A stretch of DNA of 64,000 bases from a bacterium UBA2219 (lineage in GTDB: Bacteria > Desulfobacterota > Deferrimicrobia > Deferrimicrobiales > Deferrimicrobiaceae). The stretch lies in the NCBI GenBank assembly GCA_002327765.1, contig DCUH01000133.1, forward strand, positions 58,885 to 122,884, read 5' to 3'. The notes beneath the pieces were generated by a model. That model was not told the DNA's origin. It searched no databases and saw nothing but the letters and a program-made list of their open reading frames with translations. Positions 5,882 to 62,080 of this stretch are shown here, one piece after another. Made by a program: the position numbers and the translations under genes. Each line of letters starts with the position of its first letter. Within the stretch, counting starts at the first letter, position 1.

Positions 5882-6165
5882 TGGAATACACCCCCATGTG
5901 AGATTTTTTGTTGCCGACCTCAACAGTCACATACAACAAGCCTCCTCCCTTCTTTTGGAGCATCCCCGGGGCTTGATCGAACAGGAACGCTGTTCGTCCA
6001 TCCTTCTGTCCGGGCCAACGCCAAGGCAGGCCTCAGGCACAGTGTCCCGGGAGCGGCTCCAGGGGGGATAAACCTGGCGGCGCAACCGGGACCGATTATA
6101 TCTCCTGCAAGGATAGACGATTTTCCCAACTTTGCATTCAAAATTTTTGTGTCCAGAAGTGGAGC

Positions 6166-6193
6166 GAGGGACACAGGTCGCCCTGTGTCCCTC
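6166..6193 (-). terminator. Perfect 12-bp hairpin GAGGGACACAGG-tcgc-CCTGTGTCCCTC immediately 3' of porB; possible terminator of the por operon
   Basis: Seen directly: 12-bp perfect inverted repeat with 4-nt loop, 16 nt after the porB stop. The downstream U-tract is weak (acaaaaauuuug begins 8 nt later), so the call is tentative. Confidence 0.3.
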
Positions 6194-6208
6194 GTCCGGT
6201 GCACCGTG

Positions 6209-7219
<1,011 letters not shown>

Positions 7220-13350: not shown

Positions 13351-13427
13351 TGGTCGGGATGACTGGATTTGAACCAGCGACCCCCTGGTCCCGAACCAGG
13401 TGCTCTACCAGGCTGAGCCACATCCCG
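13351..13427 (-). tRNA. tRNA-Pro (anticodon CGG), CCA encoded
   Basis: Hand-folded cloverleaf: acceptor CGGGATG/CATCCCG; D arm GCTC-AGCCTGGTA-GAGC; anticodon arm CCTGG-TTCGGGA-CCAGG (anticodon CGG); T arm GCTGG-TTCAAAT-CCAGT; discriminator A; 3' CCA. Confidence 0.9.
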
Positions 13428-14967: not shown

Positions 14968-15018
14968 CATCTCTGTCCCTGTTTTGCGGAAGAACTCATC
15001 TACGTCCCGGTTTTGTGG
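14968..15018 (+). repeat. Copy A of the ~50-nt repeat family
   Basis: CATCTCTGTCCCTGTTTTGCGGAAGAACTCATCTACGTCCCGGTTTTGTGG. It lies upstream of the caspase-like gene. Confidence 0.6.
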
Positions 15019-15029
15019 TCCGCCTCCTG

Positions 15030-15080
15030 CATCTCCGTCCCCAGGCTGGTGAGGAACTCATCAACGTCCCGGTTCCGGGG
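15030..15080 (+). repeat. Copy B of the ~50-nt repeat family (tandem to A)
   Basis: CATCTCCGTCCCCAGGCTGGTGAGGAACTCATCAACGTCCCGGTTCCGGGG. It ends 22 nt before the caspase ATG. Confidence 0.6.
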
Positions 15081-15102
15081 GCGGTCCTGGGGAGGTGCTT
15101 CC

Positions 15103-15963
15103 ATGAAGAAGAAGGCGTTGCTGGTCGGCATCGACAAATACCCGGATCCGCGCGACGGGTTGAGGGGGTGCGTCAACGACGTGCGCCTGATGGAGGAAAC
15201 GCTTCGCGGGGAATACGGTTTCTCCGGCAAGTCCGACATCCGCATCCTCGCCGACTCCCGCGCCACGACGGACGCGATCCTCGACGGCCTTTCGTGGCTC
15301 GTCGCCGGGGCGGCCCCCGGCGATTCCCTCGTGTTCCATTACTCCGGCCACGGTTCCCAGGTGCCCGACGACCGGCACGGCGACGAGACGTCCGACGGCC
15401 TCGACGAGATCCTTTGCCCCTACGACCTCGACTGGGACCGCCCGTTGACCGACGACCGCCTTGCCGCCGCGTGCGCCGGCATCCCGAGGGATGCGCTTCT
15501 TACCGTCATCCTCGACTGCTGCCATTCCGGCACCGGCCTGCGCGAGACCGGCCGCCCCTGCGGCCCGGCCCGCCCGCGCTTCATGCCGAGCCCGTCCGAT
15601 CCGTTCCCTCCGGCCCTGCGCCCCGTGCGCCGGTTCGGGGTATCCGTCACGAGGACCAAGGCGGTGCTGCTCGCCGCCTGCCGCGAAAACCAGACGTGCG
15701 CCGACGCCCCGATCGGCGCCTCCTGGCACGGCGCGCACACCTATTACCTCTGCCGGGCCTTGCGCCATGCCAACTGGATCGCAACCTATCGCGCGCTCGT
15801 CGCCTCCATGGGAGACGCCCTCGCCCGGGCCGGCTTCGACCAGGCCCCCCAGCTCGAGGGGCCGTCCCGCCTCCTGTCCTCCCGGTTCCTGGAACCTCCC
15901 CCGAAGGGGGGCGCCCGGAGGGAAACGGGGATGCGCATCGGGCTCCCCCTGCTGTGCCGGTGA
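15103..15963 (+). CDS. Caspase-like peptidase (peptidase C14, orthocaspase), stand-alone catalytic domain
   Basis: ALLVGIDKYPD...LRGCVNDV, His in HYSGHGSQ, and catalytic Cys in DCCHSG. 286 aa with no fused effector domain. GGGGAGG RBS. Confidence 0.85.
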   Translation: MKKKALLVGIDKYPDPRDGLRGCVNDVRLMEETLRGEYGFSGKSDIRILADSRATTDAILDGLSWLVAGAAPGDSLVFHYSGHGSQVPDDRHGDETSDGLDEILCPYDLDWDRPLTDDRLAAACAGIPRDALLTVILDCCHSGTGLRETGRPCGPARPRFMPSPSDPFPPALRPVRRFGVSVTRTKAVLLAACRENQTCADAPIGASWHGAHTYYLCRALRHANWIATYRALVASMGDALARAGFDQAPQLEGPSRLLSSRFLEPPPKGGARRETGMRIGLPLLCR

Positions 15964-16065: not shown

Positions 16066-18378
16066 ATGCCGGTCCGCGCGGCTTGTCTGGGATACCCTCG
16101 CATCGGGATCGACCGGGGATTGAAGAAGGCGCTCGAAAGCCACTGGGCGGGGAAGCTTTCCGCGGAGCAGCTCAAAGGCGTAGCCTCCGCGCTCCGCCGG
16201 GCCGCCTGGATGTCGATGAAGGTCGCCGGGATCGACCATATCCCGGGCAACGACTTTTCGCTGTACGATCACGTGCTCGACATGGCGGTCGCCGTCGGCG
16301 CCGTCCCCGCGCGCTACCGCCGCATCGAGGACCCTCTCGCCCGCTATTTCGCGATGGCGCGGGGGCTTCAGGACCACGCGGCGGGCATCGATGTCCCGGC
16401 GCTCGACATGACCAAGTGGTTCGACACGAATTACCACTACATCGTCCCGGAGCTGGAGGAGCGGCAGGCGTTCCGGCTCGACGCGTCGAAGATCCTGTCC
16501 GAGGTGGAGGAGGCGCGCTCCCTCGGGGTCGAGATCCGCCCCGTGGTCCCCGGCCCGGTCACCTTCCTGATGCTGTCCCGGTTCGGGCCCGGCGCGCGCG
16601 GTGGGCGCGTTCCCCTCGACCTTCTCGGCGCGCTGCTGCCGGTCTACGGGGAGCTGCTCGCGGCGCTGGCCGCTCGGGGCGTCGCGTGGGTCCAGGTCGA
16701 CGAGCCCTGCCTGGTCCTGGATCTCGACGACCGCGCCGCGGAAGCGTACCGGATCGCGCTTCGCCGGCTCGCCGCCTGCGAAAGCCGCCCGCGGCTGATG
16801 GTCGCTACCTGCTTCGGCCCTGTCGCCCGCAACCTGCCTCTGTTCGCGGAGTCGGGATGCGACGCCCTCCACGTCGACCTGGCGAGGGCCCCGGGCCAGC
16901 TGCAGGCGGTCCTCGACGGGCTTCCTCCCGAAGCGCAACTCTCCCTCGGCGTGGTGGACGGCCGCAACATCTGGCGCGCCGACCTGGACGCCGCCCACGC
17001 GCTCGTCCGGCGCGCCCGCGAGGCGCTCGGGGAGGAGAGGTTGTCCGTCGCCCCCTCCTGCTCCCTGCTCCACGTGCCGATCGACCTCGCCGCCGAGAAG
17101 CGGCTCGACCCCGGGCTGAAAGGCTGGCTCGCCTTCGCCGCCCAGAAGCTCGCGGAGGTGCGGGCGCTGGCGGACGCGGCCGGAGACGACGCGCCGGCGG
17201 GGCCGTTCTTCGAGGAGGCGCGCGCGGCGCTGGCCGGGCGGCGGGCGTCGCCCCGGACGCGCGACCCGGAGGTTCGGGCCCGGGCCGCCGCCGTGGACGC
17301 GGCGATGCTGCGCCGGGCCGCCCCCTTCGGGGAGCGCATCGCGAAGCAGCGGGCGCGCTTCGGCCTGCCGCTCCTGCCGACGACCACGATCGGCTCGTTC
17401 CCCCAGACCGCGGAGGTCCGCGAGGCCCGCGCGAAACGGCGGAAGGGGCAATGGACGGAAGAGGAGTACGAGGGCTTCCTCCGGGAGCAGGTGCGAAGGT
17501 GCGTCGCGACCCAGGAGAAGCTGGGGCTCGACGTCCTGGTTCACGGGGAGTTCGAGCGGAACGACATGGTCGAATACTTCGGGGAGAAGCTCGAGGGGTA
17601 CGCCTTCACCGAAAACGGCTGGGTCCAGAGCTACGGCTCCCGGTGCGTGAAGCCCCCCGTGCTCTTCGGGGACGTGTCGCGGCGCGCCCCCATGACGGTG
17701 GAATGGTCGGGGTTCGCCCGGTCGCTTTCGCGGCGGCCCATGAAGGGGATCCTCACCGGCCCGGTCACGATGCTCCAGTGGTCGTTCGTCCGGGACGACC
17801 AGCCGCGCGAGGAGACGTGCCTGCAGGTGGCGCTCGCGCTCCGCGACGAGGTGGCCGACCTCGAGGCCGCGGGGATCGCCATGATCCAGGTTGACGAGCC
17901 GGCGATCCGGGAAGGGCTGCCGCTGCGCCGCGGGGACCGGGCGGCATACCTGCGTTGGGCGGTCGACGCCTTCCGCCTCGCCACGAGCGGGGTCCGCGAC
18001 GAGACCCAGGTCCACACGCACCTGTGCTATTCGGAGTTCGGGGACATCATGGATTCCATCGTGGAAATGGACGCGGACGTCCTTTCCATCGAGTCGTCCC
18101 GCTCCGGGATGGAGCTGCTCTCCGATTTCCGACGCTGCAGCTACCCGAACGAGATCGGCCCCGGCGTCTACGACATCCATTCGCCGCGTGTTCCGTCCGC
18201 CGGGGAAATGGAGGAGCTGATCGCGAAGGCGGCCGAGGCGATCCCGCCGGCGCGCCTTTGGGTGAACCCGGACTGCGGCCTCAAGACGCGCGGCTGGACG
18301 GAGGTCGAGGCGGCGCTCGGGAACATGGTGGAAGCCGCGCGCCGGGTGAGGGAGCGGCTCGGCCCCCGGGAGGGCTGA
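16066..18378 (+). CDS. metE: Cobalamin-independent methionine synthase (5-methyltetrahydropteroyltriglutamate--homocysteine S-methyltransferase)
   Basis: 770 aa with N- and C-terminal MetE (UroD-like) barrels, a conserved N-terminus (VRAACLGYPRIGIDRGLKKALE) and a C-terminal Zn-binding region (HTHLCYSEF...DCGLKTR). Confidence 0.95.
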   Translation: MPVRAACLGYPRIGIDRGLKKALESHWAGKLSAEQLKGVASALRRAAWMSMKVAGIDHIPGNDFSLYDHVLDMAVAVGAVPARYRRIEDPLARYFAMARGLQDHAAGIDVPALDMTKWFDTNYHYIVPELEERQAFRLDASKILSEVEEARSLGVEIRPVVPGPVTFLMLSRFGPGARGGRVPLDLLGALLPVYGELLAALAARGVAWVQVDEPCLVLDLDDRAAEAYRIALRRLAACESRPRLMVATCFGPVARNLPLFAESGCDALHVDLARAPGQLQAVLDGLPPEAQLSLGVVDGRNIWRADLDAAHALVRRAREALGEERLSVAPSCSLLHVPIDLAAEKRLDPGLKGWLAFAAQKLAEVRALADAAGDDAPAGPFFEEARAALAGRRASPRTRDPEVRARAAAVDAAMLRRAAPFGERIAKQRARFGLPLLPTTTIGSFPQTAEVREARAKRRKGQWTEEEYEGFLREQVRRCVATQEKLGLDVLVHGEFERNDMVEYFGEKLEGYAFTENGWVQSYGSRCVKPPVLFGDVSRRAPMTVEWSGFARSLSRRPMKGILTGPVTMLQWSFVRDDQPREETCLQVALALRDEVADLEAAGIAMIQVDEPAIREGLPLRRGDRAAYLRWAVDAFRLATSGVRDETQVHTHLCYSEFGDIMDSIVEMDADVLSIESSRSGMELLSDFRRCSYPNEIGPGVYDIHSPRVPSAGEMEELIAKAAEAIPPARLWVNPDCGLKTRGWTEVEAALGNMVEAARRVRERLGPREG

Positions 18379-18603
18379 CTCCCCGGCTCCTTCGGCATCG
18401 CGTGGCATCCGCCCGTCGCCGGGCGCGCGACGGGGCCGGCCCCGCTCCGCCATGCAGCCCCGCTCCCCTTGCCCGTTTCCGCCGCTTCCGGTACTATCCC
18501 CATGCAGCGGAATCCGGTGCGCCGGGCTGCGGGAGACGTCGCATCGGGCAGCGATGCCCACGACGCCGACGATGCCGTCGACGCGGAAAGCGGGGAGCGG
18601 TCC

Positions 18604-19098
18604 TTGGAACCGAAATGGTACTTGGTCAAGACGAAGGCCCTGAACGAGAACCGGGTGGTCACTCGCCTCCTCGGCGCCGGGTACGAAGTCCTTTTCCCCA
18701 AGATCCGGAAGAAGTCGCGGCGCCACAAGGGCGTCTTCGACGTCCGGCCCCTCTTTCCCACGTATCTCTTCGTCCTTTTCCGCGGGGACGAGCTCAAGAC
18801 CATCAAGTACACCCACGGCGTCGCCCGCGTCATCTGCTTCGGCCTGGAGCCCCAGGAGGTCGATGAAGAGATCATCGTCGCGATCCGGGAGCGGATGGAC
18901 GCCGAAGGGTTCGTCAAGCTCGAGCCGAAGAAGGTCGAACTCGCCCCCGGCCAGAAGGTCAAGATCGGCGAAGGCCCCTTCGCGGGGCTCGACGCCATCT
19001 TCCTCGAGGAGCTTCCCGACCGCGAGCGCGTAGTCCTGCTCCTCGACGCCGTCTCCAGCTATAAGCTGACGATCGGGAAGAGCGACCTGGAGACGTAG
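18604..19098 (+). CDS. NusG-paralog transcription antiterminator (RfaH/UpxY/LoaP-like; NGN + KOW)
   Basis: MEPKWYLVKTKALNENRVVTRL... NGN domain and a C-terminal KOW (GQKVKIGEGPFAGLDAIF). Start chosen at TTG 18604, with a GGGGAG RBS 6 nt upstream. The ORF-track ATG at 18469 would add 45 non-conserved residues. Confidence 0.75.
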   Translation: MEPKWYLVKTKALNENRVVTRLLGAGYEVLFPKIRKKSRRHKGVFDVRPLFPTYLFVLFRGDELKTIKYTHGVARVICFGLEPQEVDEEIIVAIRERMDAEGFVKLEPKKVELAPGQKVKIGEGPFAGLDAIFLEELPDRERVVLLLDAVSSYKLTIGKSDLET

Positions 19099-19238
19099 GC
19101 CCCCTCCGGCTGCGGGCCGGAACACCCCAAAAAAACAGAAAGAACAGCCCCCGGAGGTTGATATGATCAGGGGTACTGTCGCGTCCGGAGAAAATCATCC
19201 TGAACGCCACGGGGGGATCATTTGCCGCTCCCCTTATG

Positions 19239-19250
19239 GGCGGTAGCTTG
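19239..19250 (+). promoter_or_regulatory. ops-like element GGCGGTAGCTTG (consensus GGCGGTAGnnTG) in the leader of the polysaccharide operon
   Basis: Exact match to the 12-nt operon-polarity-suppressor consensus. It lies on the non-template strand, 140 nt downstream of the NusG-paralog gene and 125 nt upstream of the first export gene. Confidence 0.35.
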
Positions 19251-19373
19251 CCCGCCGGCCCGGCAACGCTCTTGTGATCGGAAGCGAAATTGGTAAACTG
19301 GCCCGAACAGCTTGTAAAGCGCCATGAAATAAGGAAAAGGGCGCCCTTCCGGAAGCAGAGGAGGACGAATCTC

Positions 19374-22300
19374 TTGCGGTTCCTGCCCCGCCATCTCTGT
19401 CCCCGTTCTGGTGAAGAACTCATCAACGTCCCGGTTCTGTGGGTCGCTCTCCTTCTCGCGCTCCTCCTGGTGCTTTCTGCGGGCGGGCCCGCCGGCGCGG
19501 CGGAGCCGCTCTCCTCCGGGGTCACTCCCGAGCAGGCGGCCGCGATGCGGCAGCTCGTAGGGTCCGACCCCGAGGCGGCGAAGGCGGTGGAGGAAACGCT
19601 CCGGAGGAAGGCGGAAGAAGCGGAAGGCGGGGGCGGGAGCGCGGCCGGGACGGCGGGCGAGGCGGAAAAGAGGGACCTCTTCGGGGGAAAAGCCGCGCCC
19701 GAAGGGTCGGAGGCCCGGGCCGCGCGGATCGCGGCGGAGCCGCGGTACGACTGGACGAAGTCCACCTACGTCGGCGGGCTCTTCGGGAAGCGACTCACCG
19801 CCCGGGAGCGGGAGACGCTGCCCCATTTCGGGCACGACCTGTTCGCCTTCTCCTCCGTGACGCTGCAACCTCATGAAAACCTGCCGGTTTCGCCGGGATA
19901 CGTCGTCGGGCCGGGCGACGAGATCGTGGTGCGGATGTGGGGGCGCGTCGAGGGGACGCAGCGCATGGTGGTCGACCGCGACGGGAAGATCTTCTTCCCG
20001 AAGTTCGGCTCCCTCTACGTGGCCGGGAAGACCTTCGACGAGGTGCGGGCCTTCCTCATGGGGAAGGTCCAGACGATCGCCGAGGTCAGCTCCGACGTCG
20101 GCCTGGGGCAGATGAAGGGGATCCGCGTCTCCGCGATGGGCGAGGTGCGCTTCCCGGGGTGGTACAGCGTCAGCTCGCTCCACACGGCGATGCAGGCGCT
20201 CTCCGCCGCCGGGGGGATCAAGGACATCGGCTCGCTGCGCCGGATCCTGATCCGGCGCGGGGGAGGCGTGGCCGGGGAGGTCGACCTGTACGATTTCCTC
20301 CTCAAAGGGGACACGCGCGGGGACATCCACCTGCTGCAGGGCGACGTCGTCTTCGTCCCGGTCGTGGGGAAGCTCGCGGCGGTCGCGGGGGAGGTCCGCC
20401 GCCCCGCCATCTACGAGCTGAAGGGGGAGCGGTCGCTGCTCGACCTGATCCGCCTCGCGGGCGGGTTCACCCCGGCGGCCTACAAGCGGCGCGTCCAGGT
20501 GGAGCGGCTCGAGGGGAACACCGCGCGCGTGGTCTTCGACGCCGACGCCGACGCGCTGGAAAAGGGCGGGCACGGCTTCGAGCCGGCCGACGGCGACTTG
20601 GTGCGCGTCTTCCCGATCGTCCTGGCCGAGGAAAACGCGGTCCGTGTCGAGGGGAACGTCCAGCGCCCCGGCCGGTACGAGATGAAGAAGGGCATGACGG
20701 TGGGATCCCTCTTCAAGGGGGAGAAGGAGTTCCTGCCCGACACGTATTTCGACTACGCGCTGATAACCCGCCTCGTGCCTCCCGACCTGCGCAAGGAGGT
20801 CGTCCCGGTCAACCTGCGCGAGATCGTGCTGGAGCGCAAGCCCGGCTCGGACGTGCCCCTCAAATCCCGCGACACGCTGCGGGTGTTCCGCAGGAGCGAG
20901 TTCCGGGACTACCCGAGGGCGTCCATCTCCGGGGAGGTGCGGCTGGTGCGGGCGGGGCTGCTCAAGGAACCGGGGCTCGACAACCAGGCGGAGGAGAGGT
21001 TGCTCCGGGACGAGGCGGGCGGGGAACGGCTCGACGGTCAGGCGTCAGGGCGGGAAGCGGAGCGGCGCGCTGCCGCGTTCCCGGGCGCGGACGGCCTGCG
21101 CTCCGGCATGCGCCCCGTGGATTCCGTCGCCGCCGCCGATCTCCGCGATCGGGAGTTGCGCCGGATGGATCCGCGCAGGGCGGATCCGCCCGACCGGATG
21201 CTCCCCGACAGGGAACGGGACGCCCGCGGCGCGGCGCCCCGGGACGCGAACGGCCGCGACGCCAACCGGCGCGACCCGTCGGCCCGCGAAAGGGCGCTTC
21301 GGGACGCGGCCGACCGCGGCATGGACACCCGCGCCGAGGAGATCCTGAAGGCGGAGGAGCGCGGGGCGGACGTCCGCGACGTGGACGCCCCCAGGGCGGA
21401 GTCCCCCTTCTGGCGCGACGCGGTCTCCTTCGAGATCCACGGCGGGACGCGGGTGGCCGACCTCGTCCGGATGGCGGGCGGCCTCACCCGCATGGCGCAC
21501 CTCGATCGCGCCGAGATCGTCCGCGTGGACGAGAACCGCAACTACCGGACGATCTACTTCCACCTGGGCAAGGCGGTCGCCGGCGACCCGCAGGAGAACA
21601 GGCTCCTGGAAAACGAGGACCAGGTCCGCATCCACTCGGTGCTGGAGATGTCGTCCCGCAAGACGGTGTCCGTCTCGGGCGAGGTGAACCTGCCGGGCGA
21701 CTTCGTCCTCACGGAAGGGATGAAGCTGTCCGACCTGCTGTTCAAGGCCGGCGGTTTCCGGGAGAGCGCCTACCGGAGGGAGGCCGAGCTGGTGCGCCGG
21801 GAGGTCAACGTCCAGGGCGACCTCGTCAAGACGCAGGCGGTGGTCGTCTATCCCGACCGCGCGCTGTCGGGCGACAACACGGCGGACATCCCGTTGAAGG
21901 CCGACGACTACCTCTACGTCCGGCAGATCCCCGACTGGGGCGAGAAGATCGTCGTCACGCTGGCGGGGGAGTTCCGCTTCCCGGGGACCTACGCGGTGGC
22001 GAAAGGCGAGCGGATCAGCTCCGTGATCGAGCGGGCGGGCGGCTACACGACGGGCGCCTACGTGAAGGCCGGCGTCTTCACCCGCGTCTCCACCCGCGAG
22101 GCGCAGCAGCAGGCGATCGACCGGATGATCGAGGAGCTCGAGACCTCGATCGCGGAGAAGGGGCAGGAGGTGGGCGCCGCCCTCGACAAGGAGGACGTCG
22201 AGTCGAACCGGCAGCTTCTCGAGGCCCGAAGGAACCTCGTCTCCCAGCTGCGGAAGCTGAAGGCCCAGGGGCGGGTCATCGTGCGCCTTCGGGACCCCGA

Positions 22301-22715
22301 CGCGATGAAGGGGAGCAGCGACGACATCTTCCTGGAAGACGGCGACCGGCTCTACGTGCCGCAGAAGATGAACGTGGTGAACGTCGTGGGGAGGGTCTAC
22401 AACCCGACTGGCGTCGTCTACGACCCGGCGAACGACACCCTGGGCCATTACCTGAAGAGGGTCGGCGGGCCCGCGGGCAACGCGGACGAGGACAACATCT
22501 TTCTCCTGAAGGCGGACGGCTCGGTGGTGAGCCGCGCCAACGCCGACGGCAACTTCTTCACCGGCGGCTTCATGTCCTCGAAGGTGGAGCCGGGCGACTC
22601 CATCATCGTGCCGCAGAAGCTGTTCGAGGCCCGGGCGATGAAGGACGTGAAGGACCTCATCCAGATCATGTACCAGATCGCCGTGTCGGTAGGCGTGCTG
22701 GTGGTGGCGTTTTAG
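19374..22715 (+). CDS. Polysaccharide export protein, Wza/KpsD-like with Poly_export and multiple SLBB domains (paralog 1, about 1113 aa)
   Basis: Repeated SLBB-type modules (VVGPGDEIVVRMWGRVEG..., GEVRFPGWYSV..., GEVRRPAIYELKGERSLLDLIRLAGG..., GEFRFPGTYAVAKGERISSVIERAGG...). TTG start with an AGGAGGA RBS. Signal-like hydrophobic core WVALLLALLLVLSAGG. Contains an Arg/Asp-rich low-complexity insert of about 140 aa. Confidence 0.85.
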   Translation: MRFLPRHLCPRSGEELINVPVLWVALLLALLLVLSAGGPAGAAEPLSSGVTPEQAAAMRQLVGSDPEAAKAVEETLRRKAEEAEGGGGSAAGTAGEAEKRDLFGGKAAPEGSEARAARIAAEPRYDWTKSTYVGGLFGKRLTARERETLPHFGHDLFAFSSVTLQPHENLPVSPGYVVGPGDEIVVRMWGRVEGTQRMVVDRDGKIFFPKFGSLYVAGKTFDEVRAFLMGKVQTIAEVSSDVGLGQMKGIRVSAMGEVRFPGWYSVSSLHTAMQALSAAGGIKDIGSLRRILIRRGGGVAGEVDLYDFLLKGDTRGDIHLLQGDVVFVPVVGKLAAVAGEVRRPAIYELKGERSLLDLIRLAGGFTPAAYKRRVQVERLEGNTARVVFDADADALEKGGHGFEPADGDLVRVFPIVLAEENAVRVEGNVQRPGRYEMKKGMTVGSLFKGEKEFLPDTYFDYALITRLVPPDLRKEVVPVNLREIVLERKPGSDVPLKSRDTLRVFRRSEFRDYPRASISGEVRLVRAGLLKEPGLDNQAEERLLRDEAGGERLDGQASGREAERRAAAFPGADGLRSGMRPVDSVAAADLRDRELRRMDPRRADPPDRMLPDRERDARGAAPRDANGRDANRRDPSARERALRDAADRGMDTRAEEILKAEERGADVRDVDAPRAESPFWRDAVSFEIHGGTRVADLVRMAGGLTRMAHLDRAEIVRVDENRNYRTIYFHLGKAVAGDPQENRLLENEDQVRIHSVLEMSSRKTVSVSGEVNLPGDFVLTEGMKLSDLLFKAGGFRESAYRREAELVRREVNVQGDLVKTQAVVVYPDRALSGDNTADIPLKADDYLYVRQIPDWGEKIVVTLAGEFRFPGTYAVAKGERISSVIERAGGYTTGAYVKAGVFTRVSTREAQQQAIDRMIEELETSIAEKGQEVGAALDKEDVESNRQLLEARRNLVSQLRKLKAQGRVIVRLRDPDAMKGSSDDIFLEDGDRLYVPQKMNVVNVVGRVYNPTGVVYDPANDTLGHYLKRVGGPAGNADEDNIFLLKADGSVVSRANADGNFFTGGFMSSKVEPGDSIIVPQKLFEARAMKDVKDLIQIMYQIAVSVGVLVVAF
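19392..19443 (+). repeat. Copy C of the ~50-nt repeat family, overlapping the 5' end of the first export gene
   Basis: CATCTCTGTCCCCGTTCTGGTGAAGAACTCATCAACGTCCCGGTTCTGTGGG. Confidence 0.6.
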
Positions 22716-23651: not shown

Positions 23652-24917
23652 GTGGGGAAAGATCTCTATATGTACCACGCATTGAACGCCAGCCAAGTGG
23701 CGTTGGGCGTGGTTTTCCATTTCCTCCTCGCGAGGCGGTTCGGGGCGGGGGCGGAAACGGATGTGTTTTTCCTGTCAGCCGTCGTCATAGGATTCCTTTC
23801 CCTAATAGGATCGCTTTTTTCGGAGATGTTCCTCCAGCACTACTGCAAGCTGCTGGCCCGGGATACCGGGAACGCGGAGGAATTCTACCAGGCGGCATTT
23901 ACTCATTCCATCCTTCTCGGCGCGATCAGCATCGCTTTCGGTAACTCGTTTTTCCACCTGATAACGGGGCTGTTTGCTCCTGGTTTTGATGATGGCCGGG
24001 CTTCGCTTTTCCGTGATTTCTTTTTTCTTCACAGCGGGACCTTGTTGCTTTCCCGCGCAGTCGGTTTGAACAATTCACTTCTGAACGCCCACATGCGATT
24101 CTTTCTCCCGTATTTCCTGTCCGTCGTCCTTCAAGCGATAAACATCATCTTCCTGGTCGCTTTTTCCGACCGTTGGGGAATCCGCGCGCTGGCGGCAGGA
24201 TCGGTCACCGGGGTCCTGGTTTCCTTCGGGATACAGGCGCTGGCTGTCCCGCGCCTAGTCGGCGTCCGGATGAGGATCCGCCTGTGGCATCCCTCTATAC
24301 GGCCCATGGCGGCGAGCAGCGTGTCTCTGCGTCTCGGGTACCAGGTCTGGGGTCTCAGGGATCTCATCACCGCGAATGTACTTTCCAGGCTCCCCGCCGG
24401 ATCCGTCAGCGAATTTTTCTATGCGATGAGGATCGTCTCCATCTTGTTTACCGTTACCAGCTCCCCGATCCTCCAGATCTTCCAATCGAAGGCGTCCCAC
24501 CTTGCTGCCGAGGAGAGGGCAAAGGACATCCTCCCGTTGGCGCGTCAGGCGATCCTGAAAAACGTTCTGTTGTTCTCCGCGGCCGCCCTGGTCACGGCCG
24601 TTCTCCTTCCGGAGGCGCTTCATCGTCTGTTCCGGGAGGCGATGAGCCCGGATTCGATGGATTCCATCTATTATCTGTTCCTGGCGTTCGTTCCCGTGTA
24701 CGTAATTATGGCCGTCGAGGCGCCCTACCTCCAGACGGTGATCGCCATGGTGCGCGGCGACGTAGTATTCTGGATCTCCACCGTCTTCATCACGGTTTAT
24801 TTCTTGGGAGTCCAGGCGATGGGAGTCTCTCGGGGTCCGTTCGGCCTCGTTGTGAGCATGGCGGTGGCGCAGGCGGTGAATCTCCTTTTGTATGCCCGTT
24901 TCGTCGAGCAACGGTAA
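23652..24917 (+). CDS. MOP-superfamily polysaccharide flippase (Wzx-like)
   Basis: 421 aa with about 12 predicted TM helices and polysaccharide biosynthesis protein topology. Confidence 0.75.
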   Translation: MGKDLYMYHALNASQVALGVVFHFLLARRFGAGAETDVFFLSAVVIGFLSLIGSLFSEMFLQHYCKLLARDTGNAEEFYQAAFTHSILLGAISIAFGNSFFHLITGLFAPGFDDGRASLFRDFFFLHSGTLLLSRAVGLNNSLLNAHMRFFLPYFLSVVLQAINIIFLVAFSDRWGIRALAAGSVTGVLVSFGIQALAVPRLVGVRMRIRLWHPSIRPMAASSVSLRLGYQVWGLRDLITANVLSRLPAGSVSEFFYAMRIVSILFTVTSSPILQIFQSKASHLAAEERAKDILPLARQAILKNVLLFSAAALVTAVLLPEALHRLFREAMSPDSMDSIYYLFLAFVPVYVIMAVEAPYLQTVIAMVRGDVVFWISTVFITVYFLGVQAMGVSRGPFGLVVSMAVAQAVNLLLYARFVEQR

Positions 24918-25860
24918 TGCCGTCTCCTTTCATCAGCGTCGTCATCAACTCGTATAACTACGCCGAATTCGTCGCGCAGGCAGTCCAAAGCGTCCTTGCC
25001 CAGCGGTTCCCGCCGTCCGACCGGGAGATCTTGATGATTGATGACGGTTCTTCGGACGGCACAGGGAAGGTGATGGCGGCATATGCGGGCAGCGTACGGT
25101 ACATACGGAAGGAAAACGGGGGCCAGGCTCTGCATTGAACCTGGGCTCGGCAATGGCTCGCTGGGAGATCGTCTGCCTGCTGGATGCGGACAACTGGTTC
25201 TACACCGACAAGCTTGCGGCCGTGGCCGAAAAATTCCGCCGCGAGCCGGAAACCGGGGTCGTCTACAACCGGTTCGATATCATCGACAAGGACGGGTTGA
25301 TCCGGCATGCCGCCGTTCCCCGTCGGCTCATCGAGGGCGATTTGTCGGCGCTCGTTCGAATCTGGCGTGCGCCGGGTTCACCTACTTCCGGGATATCGGT
25401 CCGCCGCGAGATCTTGAAGAGGATTCCGGTCCCCGAATCATCGTTCCGAATCTGCGCGGACTCCTTCTTCCCGGTTATCCTCCCCCTCGTCGCAAACGTC
25501 GGCGTCCTCAATGAAACGTTGCACGCATACCGGGTCCACGACCGAAACGGCTACCTTGGTAAAGCGGAAGAGCAGCGATTGGAAATCCACAGGGTTCAAT
25601 GGAATGTCTTGCAAAGATACGCGACAGATCTCGGCTACCCGTTGTTCGACGCGTTCAGGACAATCGAAAGGGCGCGAGGATTTCAGGAACGAAAGGAGAA
25701 TTTCTTTCGGGGAGCGAGGTTCCTCAAGGCGATGGAAGGGTCCCGCGGGCTTCGGGCATGGACTTTCGCGAAGCTCGTGCTTGCCACCATCTTCCCGCCG
25801 GATGGTGTTTCCTTCCTTCGTCGTTTCCGCCAGCGGATGAGTAGGGAATCAGGATTTTGA
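24917..25860 (+). pseudogene. GT2 glycosyltransferase disrupted by a -1 frameshift in a G5 tract (25118-25122)
   Basis: Frame A gives MPSPFISVVINSYNYAEFVAQAVQSVLAQRFPPSDREILMIDDGSSDGTGKV...ENGGQALH*. The -1 frame continues as NLGSAMARWEIVCLLDADNWF...(DAD motif). Adding one G would restore a contiguous ENGGPGSALNLGSAMARWEIVCLLDADN GT2 core. Confidence 0.7.
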
Positions 25861-25878
25861 ACGGATATCGATAAGGCA

Positions 25879-27174
25879 ATGACCAATATCCGACCGGTAG
25901 CCATCGCGGGGCGGCAGAGGGTCCACGGACTGGCGCTTCCCTGCTTGTACCAGCTGGAAATTCTGGATATCGCCGCCTTCCTCGTGCCCGTCACGCGGTT
26001 CATCGAAATCAGCCTGGTCGGGAGGCTCTTCCTGACGGATGTGCTGCTGGCGTGCATCCTCCTCCTGCTGTTGCCGGCCCGAGGGAAACGGCTTCGCGAG
26101 CGTCTTCCGTTGACGTTCCTTCTGCTGGCGCTTCTCTGGTTATCTGGGCAGCTGGCGGCGGACATTGTCCGGCAGGCGGAATTTCGGGATTATGCAAGGG
26201 GATGGTCGAAGATCCTGTTCACCATGATCAATTTCAGCGCGCTTTATCTGATGCTGGTCGGGAACAGGCGCCGCCTGATTCTGTACGCCGGCGGCTTGGC
26301 GGCAGGAGGGCTGGCGACGTATCTCTTCAACCCGAGCGTCTTCGCCGAAGGCCTGCCGTGGAAATTCGGATACGGGGAGTCCGTCACCTGGCTGATGGCG
26401 CTGTTAGCGACATTGCTTGCCGTCAACGGAAAAACCGGCCTGTATGCCGCGTGCACGGTCCTGGCGTCTTCTGCGGTCCTGAACCTGTCGATGGGCTTCC
26501 GAAGCCTTGGCGGAATCTGCTTCTTGTCATCCTGTTACCTGTTCCTCCTGGCTCGCTGGGGGGATGGGCTTGCAAAAGGGGGCGGTCTGCGAAGAATCCT
26601 GGTCGTCGGGGGGGCGCTGGCAATTTCCGGAGCGCTCGTTTATGCGGCATACGGACACGCGGCCCGCTCCGGATGGCTCGGCGAAAACGAACTGGGGAAA
26701 TTCGAGTCTCAGCTCTTGGGGAAGTACGGATTACTGCTCGGGGGTCGCGGCGAGGTGCTTGCGGCCGGCCGGGCCATCTACGATTCGCCGCTGCTAGGTC
26801 ATGGATCGTGGGCGAAGAATTACGATTATTCGTATTTTTATTATGAGCTGATGCGGCGGTCGGGCTATGTCGTGGAGGGGGAGGTCGAGGATGGACTGAT
26901 CCCCTCTCATTCCCACCTGCTGGGGGCGTGGGTCGAGGCTGGATTGGCGGGAGCCTTGTTCTGGATTTGGGTCCTGAGTCTTCCTGCTCGCGTAATGTTC
27001 GGTGTGTACGGAAAGGTGTTCCGATTGGCGCCGTTGGCGGTGCTCTTTGCCTTATTGTTGATCTGGGATGTGCTCTTTTCCCCGTATGGGGCGGCGCAGC
27101 GCTTTGTGACGCCATACTATGTCGTTTTCATGATGAGTTGCTTGTGTGTGAAGCATCCGGGAGGGGTGGATTGA
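25879..27174 (+). CDS. O-antigen ligase/polymerase-family membrane protein (Wzy-like)
   Basis: 431 aa with about 10-12 TM helices and a large periplasmic loop, as in Wzy_C/O-antigen ligase proteins. Lies in the cluster next to the flippase. Confidence 0.6.
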   Translation: MTNIRPVAIAGRQRVHGLALPCLYQLEILDIAAFLVPVTRFIEISLVGRLFLTDVLLACILLLLLPARGKRLRERLPLTFLLLALLWLSGQLAADIVRQAEFRDYARGWSKILFTMINFSALYLMLVGNRRRLILYAGGLAAGGLATYLFNPSVFAEGLPWKFGYGESVTWLMALLATLLAVNGKTGLYAACTVLASSAVLNLSMGFRSLGGICFLSSCYLFLLARWGDGLAKGGGLRRILVVGGALAISGALVYAAYGHAARSGWLGENELGKFESQLLGKYGLLLGGRGEVLAAGRAIYDSPLLGHGSWAKNYDYSYFYYELMRRSGYVVEGEVEDGLIPSHSHLLGAWVEAGLAGALFWIWVLSLPARVMFGVYGKVFRLAPLAVLFALLLIWDVLFSPYGAAQRFVTPYYVVFMMSCLCVKHPGGVD

Positions 27175-27953
27175 AATTTTCAATAGTCACGTTGTCATTC
27201 AATCAGGGGAAATTTCTGGAAGAAGCGATCCTTTCCGTCATTCGACAGGATTATCCTGATATTGAATATATAATTGTGGACCCTGGATCCACGGATGGAA
27301 GCAGAGAAATAATAGAAAAATACAGAAGGAGTATTGCAAAGATCATATTCGAGGAGGACAACGGGCCTGCAGACGGCTTAAACAAAGGATTCCGGGCTGC
27401 GAAAGGAGATATTCTCGGATATATCAATGCCGATGATTATTACGAGCCCGCCGCTTTCACGCATGTTGCCGAAATATTTAAAAACAAACAGGATGTTGCT
27501 GTCGTTAATGGGGCGATCAGGATCGTTGACGGCCGTGGGCGGGCGAAATGGCGTAGGCGGATGTCCGACGCATTCGACCTGGAAAATTTCGCGGAAGGAA
27601 TGTGCTGGGTCGGCCAACAAGCCACATTTTTCCGGAAGACCGTTTTTGGCAACCCGGTAACGTTCAACTCGGGAAACAGGACCTGCTGGGATGCGGAATT
27701 TCTTGTGGACCTGGCATTAAATGGTTGCTTGTTTCACCGGCATCCAAAAGTATTGGGAAATTTCCGGGTCCATGAAGGATCGATCACCGGGTCGGGGCGT
27801 TTAGAGTCGCTCTATCGACAGGATATCGATCGAATCCGGAAAATCATTAGCAGGAGTATAACTAGACGGCGCCCCGGATACGTCAATGCCCTGTTGCGCG
27901 TGATGTACAAGTTCGACATCCGGCGCCAATTCATGAACTACACCGTCAGATGA
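27171..27953 (+). CDS. Glycosyltransferase family 2
   Basis: KFSIVTLSFNQGKFLEEAILSVIRQDYPDIEYIIVDPGSTDGS...INADDYY (DxD). TTG start overlapping the upstream stop (gaTTGAaa). Confidence 0.8.
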   Translation: MKFSIVTLSFNQGKFLEEAILSVIRQDYPDIEYIIVDPGSTDGSREIIEKYRRSIAKIIFEEDNGPADGLNKGFRAAKGDILGYINADDYYEPAAFTHVAEIFKNKQDVAVVNGAIRIVDGRGRAKWRRRMSDAFDLENFAEGMCWVGQQATFFRKTVFGNPVTFNSGNRTCWDAEFLVDLALNGCLFHRHPKVLGNFRVHEGSITGSGRLESLYRQDIDRIRKIISRSITRRRPGYVNALLRVMYKFDIRRQFMNYTVR

Positions 27954-27964
27954 AGGAAAGGTCC

Positions 27965-29020
27965 ATGAGGATTACCGTCCTATGGGCCAGCCTGGCCAGT
28001 TATTCCTGCGCGTTCTTCCGGGAGATTGCGAATCTTGGATGTCCTTTGCAGATTGTGTATCAGCCCGTGGATGAGGAGGCTCCGTACCAGGGATTCGACC
28101 TTTCTTTCTGCACGGCGGCAATGGAAGATTTCAAGGACACAAAAGCCCGGTTGGATTCAATGGTTTCGGATTTCCGTCCCGATTGCATACTGATGTCGAC
28201 CTGGTGTTACCCCCATTTCAGGAAATTGGCGAGAGCTGTTCGCAAAAAAGGTGTTTACGTGGTATCCGCAATGGACAACCAATGGCATGGGAGCTTACGG
28301 CAGCATATCGGAGTCTTGTCGTCACGGTTTTTTTTGAAACCCTGCATCGATACGTTTTTCTTGCCAGGAGACCGCCAGGCCTATTTTGCCCGGAAACTCG
28401 GGTATGGGAAGGTGATTTACGGATTCGGCGCCACAGACGTACGCCAATATTCCAGTGCGATACCGATCACGAGGCGTCCGGGAAATTTTCTTTTTTTCGG
28501 AAGGCTCCTTCCGATAAAGGGGGTCAGAGAACTCATCGACGCCTATGCGATATATCGAAAAGCGGTAAAGGAGCCATGGGGCTTGAAGGTGGTGGGGAAG
28601 GGGCCCATGGACTGACTGTTACGATAGGTGGAGGGGGTGGATGCTCTCGGATTCGTCCAGTCGGCGGAAATCCCTTCGGTTATGAACGAGGCCCAGTGCC
28701 TTGTCCTGCCGAGTCGATTGGAGAATTGGGGCGTGGTGATCCAAGAGGCGGGGGTAGCAGGTTTGCCTGTGATTACGACGGATGCCTGCGGCGCGGTGTC
28801 GACGTTCGTTCGGGACGGGATAAACGGATATATCGACCCCGTTGACAGGGACTATTTGGCGCAGGCCATGGTACGGATGACGGAATTGAGCCGACCGAAA
28901 CTGGAGGAAATGTCCGCGGCTGGTTGCCGGCTGGCCCGGATTTCAGATGTACGGATGGTAGCCGAATATTTTTTGGACACCGTCCGGATCATGATCAGAT
29001 CGAAGCGGCATCATCGATGA
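27965..29020 (+). pseudogene. GT4 (GT-B) glycosyltransferase interrupted by two in-frame stop codons (TGA 28613-28615, TAG 28625-28627)
   Basis: The N-terminal half ends ...FFGRLLPIKGVRELIDAYAIYRKAVKEPWGLKVVGKGPMD*. The same frame then reads LLR* VEGVDALGFVQSAEIPSVMNEAQCLVLPSRLENWGVVIQEAGVAGLPVITTD... Across the break this is a collinear GT4 C-domain (xVGxGP...LG...V.F.G.V....L......L.LPS...E.FG.V..EA...G.PVI) with no length change. Confidence 0.65.
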
Positions 29021-30162
29021 ACATAGCATATTTGACAACTTCTGATCCGTTAGACATTTCTGGCTGGTCTGGGCTGAACACATATATCTTGAGGACGCTT
29101 CAGGGAAGCGGTTTCCGAGTTGCGCCTATAGGGAATCTCAAGAAAAAGATAAACCCGCAGAATGTTCTGAAAGCATTCTGGTACAGGAAGATAGCGTCCA
29201 GTTCATATATCTTGGAACAGGATCCTGCCGTATTGAAATATTATGCCAGCCAAATCGAGAGTCGGCTTTCATCAATTCAATATGATTTGATTTTCAGTCC
29301 CAGCACGATTCCCATTGCCTATCTGGATACAAAAAAGCCGATAGTATTTTGGACGGATGCGACTTTTGCTGGGATGATTAATTATTATCCTTATCCATTT
29401 TCAGGTTTGTGTGCTGAAAGCATAAAGAATGGAAATGATATGGAACAGAGGGCTCTATCTAAATGTCGTATTGCTATATACAGCTCAGACTGGGCCGCAG
29501 ACACCGCAATAAAATGCTATGATGTGGATCCTATAAAAGTTAAGGTTGTCCCATTTGGCGCAAATGTTGAGTGCAATAGAAGCATTGATGATATTGAGGA
29601 TATGCTGAGGAAAAAGAATTTAGATATTTGTAAATTGCTATTCGTAGGGGTGGATTGGGGAAGGAAAGGAGGGGTTTTTGCGTTGGAGGTGGCTGAATTA
29701 TTGAATTGCCGAGGCATTCCAACAGAATTGCACGTGATTGGTTGCGATCCTAAAATTAAGATTCCTAAGTTTGTAAAGAAGCATGGGTTTATTTCCAAAA
29801 GGACTAAATCAGGAGAAATATGTTTTGATCAGTTGATGGCCGAATCGCATTTTTTGATTTTGCCTGCACGAGCGGAGTGTTGTGCAGTTGTCCTTGCCGA
29901 GGCAAATTCTTTTGGGCTTCCCACTCTGGCTTCGAGAACAGGAGGAATACCTACGGTAATCCGGAACGGGAAAAACGGCCAGACATTCGATATGAGCGAA
30001 GGCCCCGAGGCATATTGTAAATATATCGAAAGCGTTTTTTCATCGAAACAGTTTTATCGTGAATTGGCGCTCGCTTCGTTCCACGAATATTCCGAAAGAT
30101 TGAACTGGTCCTCCGCAGGGCGAAAAGTTCATGATCTGATAAAAGAACACTGCCGCGGATAA
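29017..30162 (+). CDS. Glycosyltransferase family 4 (low GC, about 42%)
   Basis: MNIAYLTTSDPLDISGWSGLNTY... GT-B N-domain, and a C-domain with EANSFGLPTLASRTGGIPTVI (E-x7-E region). The ATG overlaps the upstream stop (cgATGAac). Confidence 0.8.
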   Translation: MNIAYLTTSDPLDISGWSGLNTYILRTLQGSGFRVAPIGNLKKKINPQNVLKAFWYRKIASSSYILEQDPAVLKYYASQIESRLSSIQYDLIFSPSTIPIAYLDTKKPIVFWTDATFAGMINYYPYPFSGLCAESIKNGNDMEQRALSKCRIAIYSSDWAADTAIKCYDVDPIKVKVVPFGANVECNRSIDDIEDMLRKKNLDICKLLFVGVDWGRKGGVFALEVAELLNCRGIPTELHVIGCDPKIKIPKFVKKHGFISKRTKSGEICFDQLMAESHFLILPARAECCAVVLAEANSFGLPTLASRTGGIPTVIRNGKNGQTFDMSEGPEAYCKYIESVFSSKQFYRELALASFHEYSERLNWSSAGRKVHDLIKEHCRG

Positions 30163-30175
30163 AGGTTTTCGCAAT

Positions 30176-31081
30176 ATGCCATTAGATATACCTGGTTCCG
30201 AATGTCCCATCTGCAGAAGTGGAACGATTAAGGCCAGTCTCCATTTCCCGTATTGTTATTGGCGGTGTGTGTCGTGTGGATCGTCTCATCTGCATCCTCA
30301 ACCGACCAATGAGGAACTGGAACGGTACTATGAGGTTTTTCATTTGCCTTCGGAAGCCGGCGGCATCTATGCCGATTTCGAAGACAGGGTTCAATCTGAT
30401 TTTTCTGTAAAAGCGGGAATCGTATCCCGCTTGTTGAAAAACAATGGCGGGCAAGACTTAGGCAATAAGCGTGTATTGGATGTGGGTTGTGGGAAAGGTT
30501 TTTTCGTCCGGGAACTCCTGAAATCAGGAATTTCCGTTGAAGGGATCGACCTGTCTTCGAGCGCAATTTCAGAAGGGAAAGAGGTACATGGAATCAGAGG
30601 ATTGCGTATTGGGCGGATAGAATATCAGGAGGATTGGTCAGAGCGATTCGATGCCGTAACGGCTTGGGCGACGTTGGAGCATCTTCCATCTCCCCAAGAT
30701 TTTCTGAATTCGGTCAGGAGGGTTCTGAAGCCTGATGGTTTACTTGTTTTCGATACGGGGTTGGCCGGAGACTATCTGGATCGGCATGCTCCGGGATTGA
30801 TCCAGTGGTACGACCCCCCGCAGCACCTGTTCGTCTTCAGTCTCGCGGGGCTCGAATTGCTGCTGAAACAATCCGGTTTTTCGATTATTTCCTGCGACAA
30901 AAATTTCGAAAGGACATCAGGCCGCCGCCTGTTGAAATACGTCAGGAACAAAATTCTTGTTACCGTGACCGCCGGCATCTTCCGTGCCGCCTTAGGAAAA
31001 AGGCAGTATCAAAGGATGCGGATGGAAAGCAAAATGCCTTACGGTTCATTGGTCATGATAGCGGCACGGCGCGTTTCTTAG
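30176..31081 (+). CDS. Class I SAM-dependent methyltransferase with N-terminal zinc ribbon
   Basis: CPICRSG...CVSCGS zinc ribbon, then motif I VLDVGCGKGFF and post-I/II motifs. 301 aa. Confidence 0.8.
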   Translation: MPLDIPGSECPICRSGTIKASLHFPYCYWRCVSCGSSHLHPQPTNEELERYYEVFHLPSEAGGIYADFEDRVQSDFSVKAGIVSRLLKNNGGQDLGNKRVLDVGCGKGFFVRELLKSGISVEGIDLSSSAISEGKEVHGIRGLRIGRIEYQEDWSERFDAVTAWATLEHLPSPQDFLNSVRRVLKPDGLLVFDTGLAGDYLDRHAPGLIQWYDPPQHLFVFSLAGLELLLKQSGFSIISCDKNFERTSGRRLLKYVRNKILVTVTAGIFRAALGKRQYQRMRMESKMPYGSLVMIAARRVS

Positions 31082-31083
31082 AC

Positions 31084-32256: not shown

Positions 32257-32466
32257 CATGGAGCCGCTCGGGATCGATTTTCCGGAAATGCCCGGCGCCA
32301 TCGGGGAGTTTCCTCCGTGCCCGGTCGGCGTGTCGTTCATGACCAGCCAGTATTCCTATGCGATGCAAAGCTTCGCCACCGTGCGCCTGCTTACTGGGTG
32401 CGACGACCGCAGCCAGCGGATTCAAGAAATATGTTTCTTTGCCACGTAGAATAAATATAGCGAAAT

Positions 32467-33363: not shown

Positions 33364-33429
33364 ACGAGTTGTTTCCAAATACGACTATTTTTATTATCTG
33401 AAACGGTAGCATGTCCGATGATGCGTTAA

Positions 33430-62039: not shown

Positions 62040-62080
62040 CCGGTCGCGGATCCCGGCGACGCGGGCGGAGAGGGCCGGCG

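Follow-up and report, generated by a model that had tools for sequence, protein, structure and literature searches.

A candidate RfaH/ops-type antitermination module at the start of a polysaccharide gene tract in Candidatus Deferrimicrobiota

RfaH and its ops element are the textbook example of sequence-specific recruitment of an elongation factor, and the detailed mechanism is known only for Escherichia coli. Here, we describe an RfaH-like gene and an ops element in a 64,000-nucleotide stretch of DNA (“the window”) from the bacterium UBA2219 (Deferrimicrobiaceae; GenBank assembly GCA_002327765.1, contig DCUH01000133.1, positions 58,885 to 122,884 of the forward strand). The gene encodes a paralog of NusG. 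A perfect match to the ops consensus lies directly downstream of it, in the leader of a long tract of co-directional polysaccharide genes (Table 1). A first-pass annotation, made from the sequence alone, read this arrangement as processive antitermination of a polysaccharide operon. That reading is supported, with corrections: RfaH is the closest family of the paralog, and ops is conserved at every specified position in relatives. We consider it likely that the locus carries an RfaH/ops-type processive antitermination module in a member of Candidatus Deferrimicrobiota and equally likely that the motif serves the adjacent paralog as a functional ops-type site.

The paralog, its leader and the downstream genes

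Table 1. Features of the window discussed in the text (position 1 is the first letter of the window)
Feature	Positions	Strand	Remarks
RfaH-like NusG paralog	18604-19098	+	164 amino acids; NGN and KOW domains; TTG start; Pfam NusG NGN, 2e-12
Candidate extended -10 promoter, TGaTATGAT (TGATATGAT)	19159-19167	+	putative, from the intergenic alignment only
Second conserved leader block, GAAAC-A-nTGT-nT(C)GC	~19165-19185		between candidate promoter and ops
Extended conserved 16-mer, ATG-GGCGGTAGCTTG-C	19236-19251	+	by information content in aligned leaders
13-codon open reading frame, MGGSLPAGPATLL-stop	19236-19277	+	opened by the ATG abutting ops; no Shine-Dalgarno sequence in this window
ops element, GGCGGTAGCTTG	19239-19250	+	non-template strand of leader; 12/12 match to GGCGGTAGnnTG; sole GGCGGTAGNNTG match in 64 kb
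Possible GGCGG/CCGCC pairing	19240-19262		ops GGCGG with CCGCC 8 nt downstream
Co-directional polysaccharide tract	19374-58940	+	presumed target; ~39.6 kb, ~33-35 genes
Large Wza-like polysaccharide exporter	19374-22715	+	first structural gene; 1113 amino acids; TTG start; Poly_export, SLBB, SLBB_2
Low-GC island	24000-34000		48-58% GC vs 67-72% in flanks; flippase, glycosyltransferase and methyltransferase genes; low GC at third codon positions
Wzi-like gene	40541-42034	+	497 amino acids; in relatives, orthologue often first gene after ops, starting at the ops ATG
Single tRNA of the window	13354-13427	-
Caspase-domain (Peptidase_C14) gene	15013-15963	+	5' of metE
YjbH-family exopolysaccharide gene	59886-63005	-	marks end of tract

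The protein has the two-domain, NusG-like architecture, i.e., NGN followed by KOW, as judged by Pfam, by alignment to RfaH, by its AlphaFold model and by Foldseek. Ranked against the NCBIfam hidden Markov models, it scores best with RfaH (TIGR01955, 96.8 bits), followed by UpxY (NF033644, 59.1 bits), housekeeping NusG (TIGR00922, 34.8 bits) and LoaP (NF033641, 29.6 bits), in each case below the curated cut-off (144.5, 100, 135.7 and 125 bits, respectively). Its top sequence match among solved structures in a phmmer search is E. coli RfaH (6e-10), and the HMMER alignment between the two spans residues 3-147. By sequence, the paralog is nearer to RfaH than to UpxY, NusG or LoaP. Public data hold ~220 homologues, mostly of 163-164 amino acids, which favours the TTG start at 18604. 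Most are labelled Candidatus Deferrimicrobiaceae, which NCBI assigns to the phylum Candidatus Deferrimicrobiota, or come from “Deltaproteobacteria” metagenome-assembled genomes (MAGs). The 5' neighbor of the gene is metE and the polysaccharide genes lie on its other side, with no secE-nusG-rplK context; BLAST of the paralog and its leader against plasmids gave no match.

We compared individual residues using the HMMER alignment to E. coli RfaH and alignments of the family. Residues assigned in the literature to ops recognition (K10, R16 and T72), RNA polymerase binding (F56), and interdomain contact and autoinhibition (I93, F130 and R138) are kept. Other ops contacts are changed: H20 is Arg and Q24 is Ala, both invariant in the family, R23 is Gly, and R73 is His in the window protein and Arg in about half of the family. 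E48, which forms the autoinhibitory salt bridge to R138, is replaced by an invariant Arg. Read directly from the RfaH alignment, the KOW domain has no NusG-type IFG Rho-binding loop. The fold of this domain, which the first-pass annotation had singled out for modelling, is predicted with low confidence to be a beta-barrel rather than the alpha hairpin of RfaH: AlphaFold runs with 22 and 81 family sequences both gave four beta strands. The predicted local distance difference test (pLDDT) score of the domain was ~80 in the first run and ~58 in the second (55-83 overall), with whole-model means of 74 and 67. Such a prediction cannot settle the fold of a fold-switching protein, and AlphaFold's choice of fold in the RfaH family varies with the alignment (PMC13015549). 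In Foldseek, the whole model matches ops-recruited RfaH (8phk_P, 6c6s_D) and NusG, while autoinhibited RfaH (5ond, 2oug) is matched over the NGN domain only.

The ops match lies 141 nt past the stop codon of the paralog and 124 nt before the TTG (19374) of the exporter gene, which has GAGGAGGA 8 nt before its start. The first-pass annotation had placed a 164-residue NGN+KOW protein directly upstream of a perfect, non-template-strand ops match and had put the chance of such a match in the window at about 0.1, all of which holds up. Dinucleotide shuffles of the window average 0.12 matches, with at least one match in 12 of 100 shuffles, so the motif is not significant from the window alone. No second ops-like site with up to two mismatches occurs in any leader position within the polysaccharide tract.

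A scan of the leader for consensus sigma-70 -35/-10 elements found nothing. In the intergenic alignment, a TGnTAnnAT sequence ~70 nt 5' of ops lines up with TGnTAACAT, TGnTACTAT and TGnTAATAT in relatives, and another group of relatives has an extended -10 element, GTGTATAAT, 115-125 nt 5' of ops. This points to a separate promoter for the polysaccharide genes, located between the paralog gene and ops, which would put ops in the early transcribed region. The second conserved leader block, which may be the transcription start region, is also found ~75 nt 5' of ops in L006-L023, L075, L084 and L121.

The tract contains two tandem sets of export and priming genes. The first comprises Wza1, Wzz1, a MurJ-like flippase, GT2/GT4 glycosyltransferases, methyltransferases, a Bac_transf priming enzyme, SDR, FKBP and a Polysacc_synt_2 dehydratase. 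The second starts at 40541 with no gap before it, and comprises the Wzi-like gene, Wza2, Wzz2/GNVR, WbsX, GT1, Bac_transf2, aminotransferases and E1 alpha/beta. The first gene of a related locus, L006, matches the Wzi-like gene of the window in tblastn at 49% identity over residues 33-494 in a single frame. Because the Wzi-like gene directly follows ops in many relatives, ~21 kb may have been inserted between the two in the window. The first-pass description of the tract as a 40-kb operon of about 38 genes with almost no intergenic gaps is partly right: the genes are co-directional and, roughly, closely packed over ~39.6 kb, but they number about 33-35, several gaps measure 200-300 nt, and more than one transcription unit may be present. 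Terminator scans across the operon gave counts equal to those of shuffled sequences and are uninformative on internal terminators.

Conservation of ops in two locus types

We assembled 41 genome loci that encode relatives of the paralog at 35-96% identity, 259 kb in total. They contain 25 perfect 12-mers, all on the strand of the paralog and 59-602 nt past its stop codon, with no perfect 12-mer elsewhere on either strand of the 259 kb; at the rate of the window, chance would give ~0.5. The first-pass annotation had allowed that ops-like 12-mers might turn out to be just as frequent in coding regions across the genome, and these counts speak against it. The perfect 12-mer stands at the equivalent place in 25 of the 37 loci that have at least 350 nt of downstream sequence, and five further loci have a copy with one mismatch (L003, T11C; L004 and L020, G12T; L025, T6C, giving GGCGGCAGCCTG; L040, G1A). 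It is this conservation at the same relative place in related loci that raises the motif above chance.

In an alignment of 30 unique leaders anchored on the motif, the flanks hold close to 0 bits of information, against 1.3-2.0 bits across a 16-nt block, ATGGGCGGTAGCCTGC, in which the ATG at positions -3 to -1 and the C at +13 reach 1.4-1.8 bits. The element is an island of identity in leaders that are otherwise unalignable, including those of paralogs only 59-67% identical. The eight central ops bases are fixed in the aligned leader set by how that set was chosen; the near-invariance of the element is not an artefact of this choice, since the initial leader search required GGTAG only and the loci without GGTAG were inspected by eye.

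The ATG stands directly before the 12-mer in 27 of the 30 genome leaders; the other three (L032, L034b and L040) keep the 12-mer without it. GGAGG lies 4 nt upstream of the ATG in ~60% of loci. Among 45 ATG-carrying loci, the ATG opens the first long open reading frame (ORF) in 18, usually a Wzi-like protein of ~500 amino acids and often with a clean signal peptide (MGGSLLAVLAAL...); in other relatives it opens ORFs of 11-18 codons. C-G-C at +14 to +16 is moderately kept in paralog-linked leaders.

The family shows some variation around this pattern. Six related loci (L027, L029, L030, L031, L033 and L037; 60-65% identity) have no recognisable ops after the paralog; in this sub-clade, the Wzi-like gene lies 60-200 nt after the paralog, and L030 and L037 carry an apparent decayed remnant of ops (GAGAGGCGGCC...). 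Many family members end in E-R-stop, encoded GAG CGG TAG, which creates an ops-like sequence, AGCGGTAGCCGG (10/12), across the stop codon. This occurs in L025, L028, L030, L031, L033 and L037, and also in L006, L018 and L022; carriers are mostly loci without a leader ops (L030, L031, L033 and L037). L034 has tandem ops copies 94 nt apart (2934-2945 and 3028-3039), the second being GGCGGTAGCCCG, without ATG. In L121 and L075, a typical ops leader, GGGAGGCCGC-ATGGGCGGTAGCCTGC, is followed not by polysaccharide genes but by genes that we read as a putative ribbon-helix-helix antitoxin and a PIN-type toxin; L121 also has what reads as a large transposase-like ORF just upstream, on the opposite strand.

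A scan of metagenome contigs for the exact 16-mer returned at least 80 loci. Among the matches listed, at least 11 have a family paralog 65-250 nt upstream of the 16-mer, and at least 18 share a different context, ggaggtggaATGGTGAAGGCCATATGGGCGGTAGCCTGC, in which the motif is read W-A-V-A-C. At these second-type loci (L045, L046, L052, L056, L058, L059, L067, L070, L079, L080, L082 and L090, and further L096, L108, L115 and L119), the motif lies 10 nt into the first gene, at codons 5-10, which encodes a small Wza-like exporter or lipoprotein and is directly downstream of a gene pair for a histidine kinase and a sigma-54-dependent response regulator, the latter an activator of the NtrC/PrsR type. 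The cluster is of the XrtA/PEP-CTERM type: the NCBIfam cut-off is reached by its polysaccharide deacetylase and narrowly missed by its chain-length determinant. Homologues of the first gene are named Candidatus Deferrimicrobium. No NusG paralog was found within 5-10 kb of the second-type loci examined. One metagenome match is of neither kind: in L062, the same 16-mer stands directly before a UpxY-like paralog (5906-6463, minus strand; 96.6 bits against a cut-off of 100) inside a polysaccharide locus, with the ATG of the motif in frame with it (MGGSLPWERDEVVTVHPWYAVRV...).

Because the 18 loci had been picked by the exact motif and are biased in its favour, we chose six more (L162-L167) by similarity to the C-terminal 184 residues of the first gene's product only, and then fetched their DNA. 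All six carry GGCGGTAGCCTG exactly. Codons beside the motif vary synonymously (GTT/GTG, AAG/AAA, TGT/TGC, GTA/ATT/ATC/GTT), and the Val within it is always encoded by the rare codon GTA. The identical nucleotides are read M-G-G-S-L at paralog-linked loci and W-A-V-A-C at the second type. Since the same nucleotides are kept in two reading frames, the constraint acts on the nucleic acid and not on the peptide. One MAG, GCA_049685835.1, has both types, i.e., L162 (second type) and L021 (paralog plus ops). A search for further ops sites in leaders of long operons, proposed in the first-pass annotation, here yields a second polysaccharide locus with the element at its start. An ops at an unlinked locus without a nearby paralog, in the same MAG as a paralog locus, suggests indirectly that the RfaH-like protein may act in trans as well.

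A proposed mechanism and its alternatives

The steps that we propose follow the E. coli system. Transcription would start near 19174, ~65 nt 5' of ops, from a promoter between the paralog gene and the motif. RNA polymerase would then pause at U11 (19249) of GGCGGTAGCTTG, which holds the G(-10)/Y(-1)/G(+1) consensus pause, with the non-template strand exposed on its surface. The RfaH-like protein would bind this paused complex through its NGN domain and remain bound, excluding NusG and hence Rho, so that polymerase would be carried through ~40 kb. This read-through would include the 10-kb low-GC island, where transcription might otherwise tend to stop early; judging from E. coli, such an island offers a rationale for an anti-Rho factor (PMC7593976, PMC7819879). 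The KOW domain would probably contact the ribosome, as it does in E. coli, where RfaH recruits the ribosome via S10. The same element at the unlinked XrtA/PEP-CTERM-type locus would be served in trans. We regard the statement that the module works like RfaH/ops as better supported than the statement that the paralog is an RfaH orthologue, because both the curated RfaH cut-off and the contact-residue test failed.

Several features weigh against an RfaH/ops-type module. First, the paralog falls short of the RfaH cut-off (96.8 vs 144.5 bits), and three of the five residues that contact G5 and T6 of ops in E. coli are changed (H20R, R23G and Q24A). Second, E48, which autoinhibition requires, is replaced throughout the family, and both AlphaFold runs gave a beta KOW, which by the current model accompanies ops-independent recruitment in cis (PMC13015549). 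Third, six related loci have the paralog but no recognisable ops. Fourth, the E. coli ops model does not explain the conserved ATG and the frequent GGAGG upstream of it. Finally, the tract may comprise more than one transcription unit.

Some of these features are the basis of the strongest alternative, which is that the motif is a plain pause site, or has another reader, while the paralog is a monomorphic, non-autoinhibited, NusG-like factor that loads in cis without ops. The beta KOW, full-length Foldseek matches to active RfaH and NusG rather than to autoinhibited RfaH, the invariant Arg in place of E48, the changed ops contacts and the six loci without ops all fit this alternative. It also has a precedent in predicted-monomorphic homologues, which lie beside long operons, lack some ops-binding residues and are ops-independent in E. 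coli (PMC13015549). However, a plain pause needs G2, T11 and G12 only, and C3, G4, G5, T6, A7 and G8 are invariant in all copies but one; C3-G8 are the bases that form or decorate the hairpin bound by RfaH in E. coli. Loading in cis cannot explain ops at loci with no paralog within 10 kb. The fold prediction, too, is of low confidence for the C-terminal domain (pLDDT 55-83) and depends on the alignment (PMC13015549). We consider this alternative unlikely.

The conserved ATG raises the question of whether the block is instead a coding start, i.e., the beginning of a leader or signal peptide (M-G-G-S-L) that is kept for its product or for initiation, with the match to ops a coincidence. The ATG in 27 of 30 leaders, the GGAGG at ~60% of loci, the 18 of 45 loci in which the first long ORF begins at the ATG and often encodes a clean signal peptide, and the 11-18 codon ORFs elsewhere are what a coding start would predict. 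The pattern of constraint is not: third codon positions (GGC GGT AGC CTG) are invariant, the peptide past residue 5 is unconserved, and the second locus type keeps the nucleotides in the other frame (TGG GCG GTA GCC TG, or WAVAC). Moreover, a Shine-Dalgarno sequence is missing from the window and from several other loci, three leaders retain the 12-mer and lose the ATG, and the chance of fitting all ten specified positions of the family's own motif is about one in a million. A leader peptide as the sole explanation was rejected on the conservation in two frames, and we judge a coding start with a coincidental ops match to be very improbable.

Two further alternatives appear less probable still. 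The first is that the block is a sigma-54 promoter, since TGG-N10-GC fits -24/-12 spacing (aTGGgcGgtagccTGC). GG and GC are at the right spacing in 21 of 30 genome leaders, and an NtrC/PrsR-type activator gene lies immediately upstream in the second locus type. The conservation pattern, on which we rejected this candidate, is the reverse of that expected: the would-be spacer (TAGC) is invariant while the core varies, with GG/GC core or spacing broken in nine of 30 leaders (GG is shifted by one base in three, and the -12 GC loses its G in two and its C in four), and five of the six unbiased second-type loci have TGT rather than TGC. In addition, the -24 element would read TGGGCG and not TGGCAC, and a promoter here would truncate ORFs equipped with a Shine-Dalgarno sequence and a signal peptide of their own.

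The second is that the element is active at the RNA level, with the paralog binding either a leader hairpin of the LoaP type or some other structured RNA. LoaP is itself a NusG paralog that binds leader RNA (cited in PMC7819879), and in the window the ops GGCGG could pair with the downstream CCGCC; the moderately kept C-G-C at +14 to +16 fits as well. We dropped a riboswitch or LoaP-type RNA because shuffled sequence folds at least as stably as the leader (z = +1.6); further, the second locus type has neither the downstream CCGCC nor the C-G-C, LoaP scores lowest of the four families, and Rfam gave no JUMPstart and only a chance-level GA-cis match, within the upstream region of the paralog, in 18300-19500 at E values up to 10 (at gathering thresholds, the whole window gave only the tRNA). 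The first-pass annotation had also considered that the paralog might belong to a clade with a different recruitment site; no UpxY- or LoaP-type site or Rfam family was found in the leader, and the protein is below the cut-offs of both models.

Returning to an RfaH/ops-type module, there is a more specific version of it that we put forward tentatively, as doubtful but possible. In this version, ops is not a plain 5'-UTR signal but forms one unit with the translation start (ATG-GGCGGTAGCCTG-C, in most cases with a Shine-Dalgarno sequence), so that the factor would load where the pioneer ribosome initiates, and a canonical ops would be read by a protein without most of the E. coli contacts. The element would open the first gene or a mini-ORF, or sit 10 nt inside the first ORF. 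Polymerase paused at U11 would be ~8-9 codons from the AUG, and coupling of transcription and translation could be set up from the first codons. If so, canonical ops would be read without most E. coli contacts and probably without autoinhibition, and the “late acquisition” model of RfaH evolution (PMC7593976) would date ops recognition too late or underrate its portability.

Comparison with known antitermination systems

Of 117 bacterial phyla, 23 are reported to contain RfaH-like genes; Proteobacteria account for ~95% of these genes, and RfaH clusters other than that of E. coli are enriched beside cell-envelope polysaccharide genes (PMC7593976). The first-pass statement that such an arrangement is not expected a priori outside enterobacteria was, in light of this general description, too strong. 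Reviews describe the recruitment of other NusG paralogs as unknown (PMC7593976, PMC7819879). In our literature searches, no paper linked RfaH to Deferrimicrobiota, Desulfobacterota or the related taxa that we queried, and none dealt with ops at PEP-CTERM-type loci.

The exact 12-nt signal is under strong selection in a non-proteobacterial phylum, beside a paralog that is without several of the reading residues and without E48. Three questions can be put to a natural test in this family: whether ops recognition really arose late and jointly with autoinhibition, whether “monomorphic” homologues encoded in cis do act without ops, and whether ops can work inside coding sequence at a translation start. 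On the practical side, ATGGGCGGTAGCCTGY is a simple marker for the starts of exopolysaccharide operons in uncultured Deferrimicrobiota.

With E. coli RfaH, which acts on the waa, rfb, hly, tra and kps operons, the system shares a two-domain NGN+KOW paralog, for which RfaH is the best match by hidden Markov model and structure, and the same 12-nt ops consensus, base for base, which is carried on the non-template strand where long polysaccharide operons begin. Like the E. coli system, it probably has more than one target locus per genome. Unlike the E. coli system, it is found in the phylum Deferrimicrobiota, the gene adjoins its main target and is co-oriented with it, its ops is flanked by a conserved ATG, often after a Shine-Dalgarno sequence, and can lie inside the first ORF, and there is no JUMPstart context, as judged by Rfam.

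The paralog also resembles the predicted monomorphic homologues of RfaH (Tabilo-Agurto et al. 2026 preprint, PMC13015549; CL2-CL8 of Wang et al. 2020, PMC7593976) in its position next to a long cell-envelope polysaccharide operon, its active-like AlphaFold fold, and the missing E48 salt bridge and ops contacts. Those homologues are described as ops-independent and recruited in cis, whereas here a canonical ops is strictly conserved, including at a locus without a nearby paralog. The conservation of C3-G8, the paralog-free ops locus and the low AlphaFold confidence all count against assigning the paralog to the monomorphic class.

Like UpxY of Bacteroides, the paralog is tied to a capsular or exopolysaccharide locus and would act at the 5' end of the operon. 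UpxY, however, heads its own operon and acts, at an unknown site, on the leader that precedes its gene, while the paralog gene here precedes the candidate promoter and ops and stands outside the operon, and UpxY is only its second-best model. PrfaH of IncX plasmids is similarly an RfaH homologue encoded beside its target, and its ops-like site likewise follows closely on a nearby promoter, which in the window is a candidate; unlike the paralog, PrfaH is plasmid-borne in Enterobacteriaceae and controls conjugation genes (PMC11880322). Foldseek matched the paralog to PrfaH only in part (9ik0_A, E = 5e-4).

The kind of system described here, RfaH with ops, is already known. What varies is the adjacency to the target, the loss of E48 and of three contacts, the predicted beta KOW, and an ops element fused to a start codon or placed within the first ORF.

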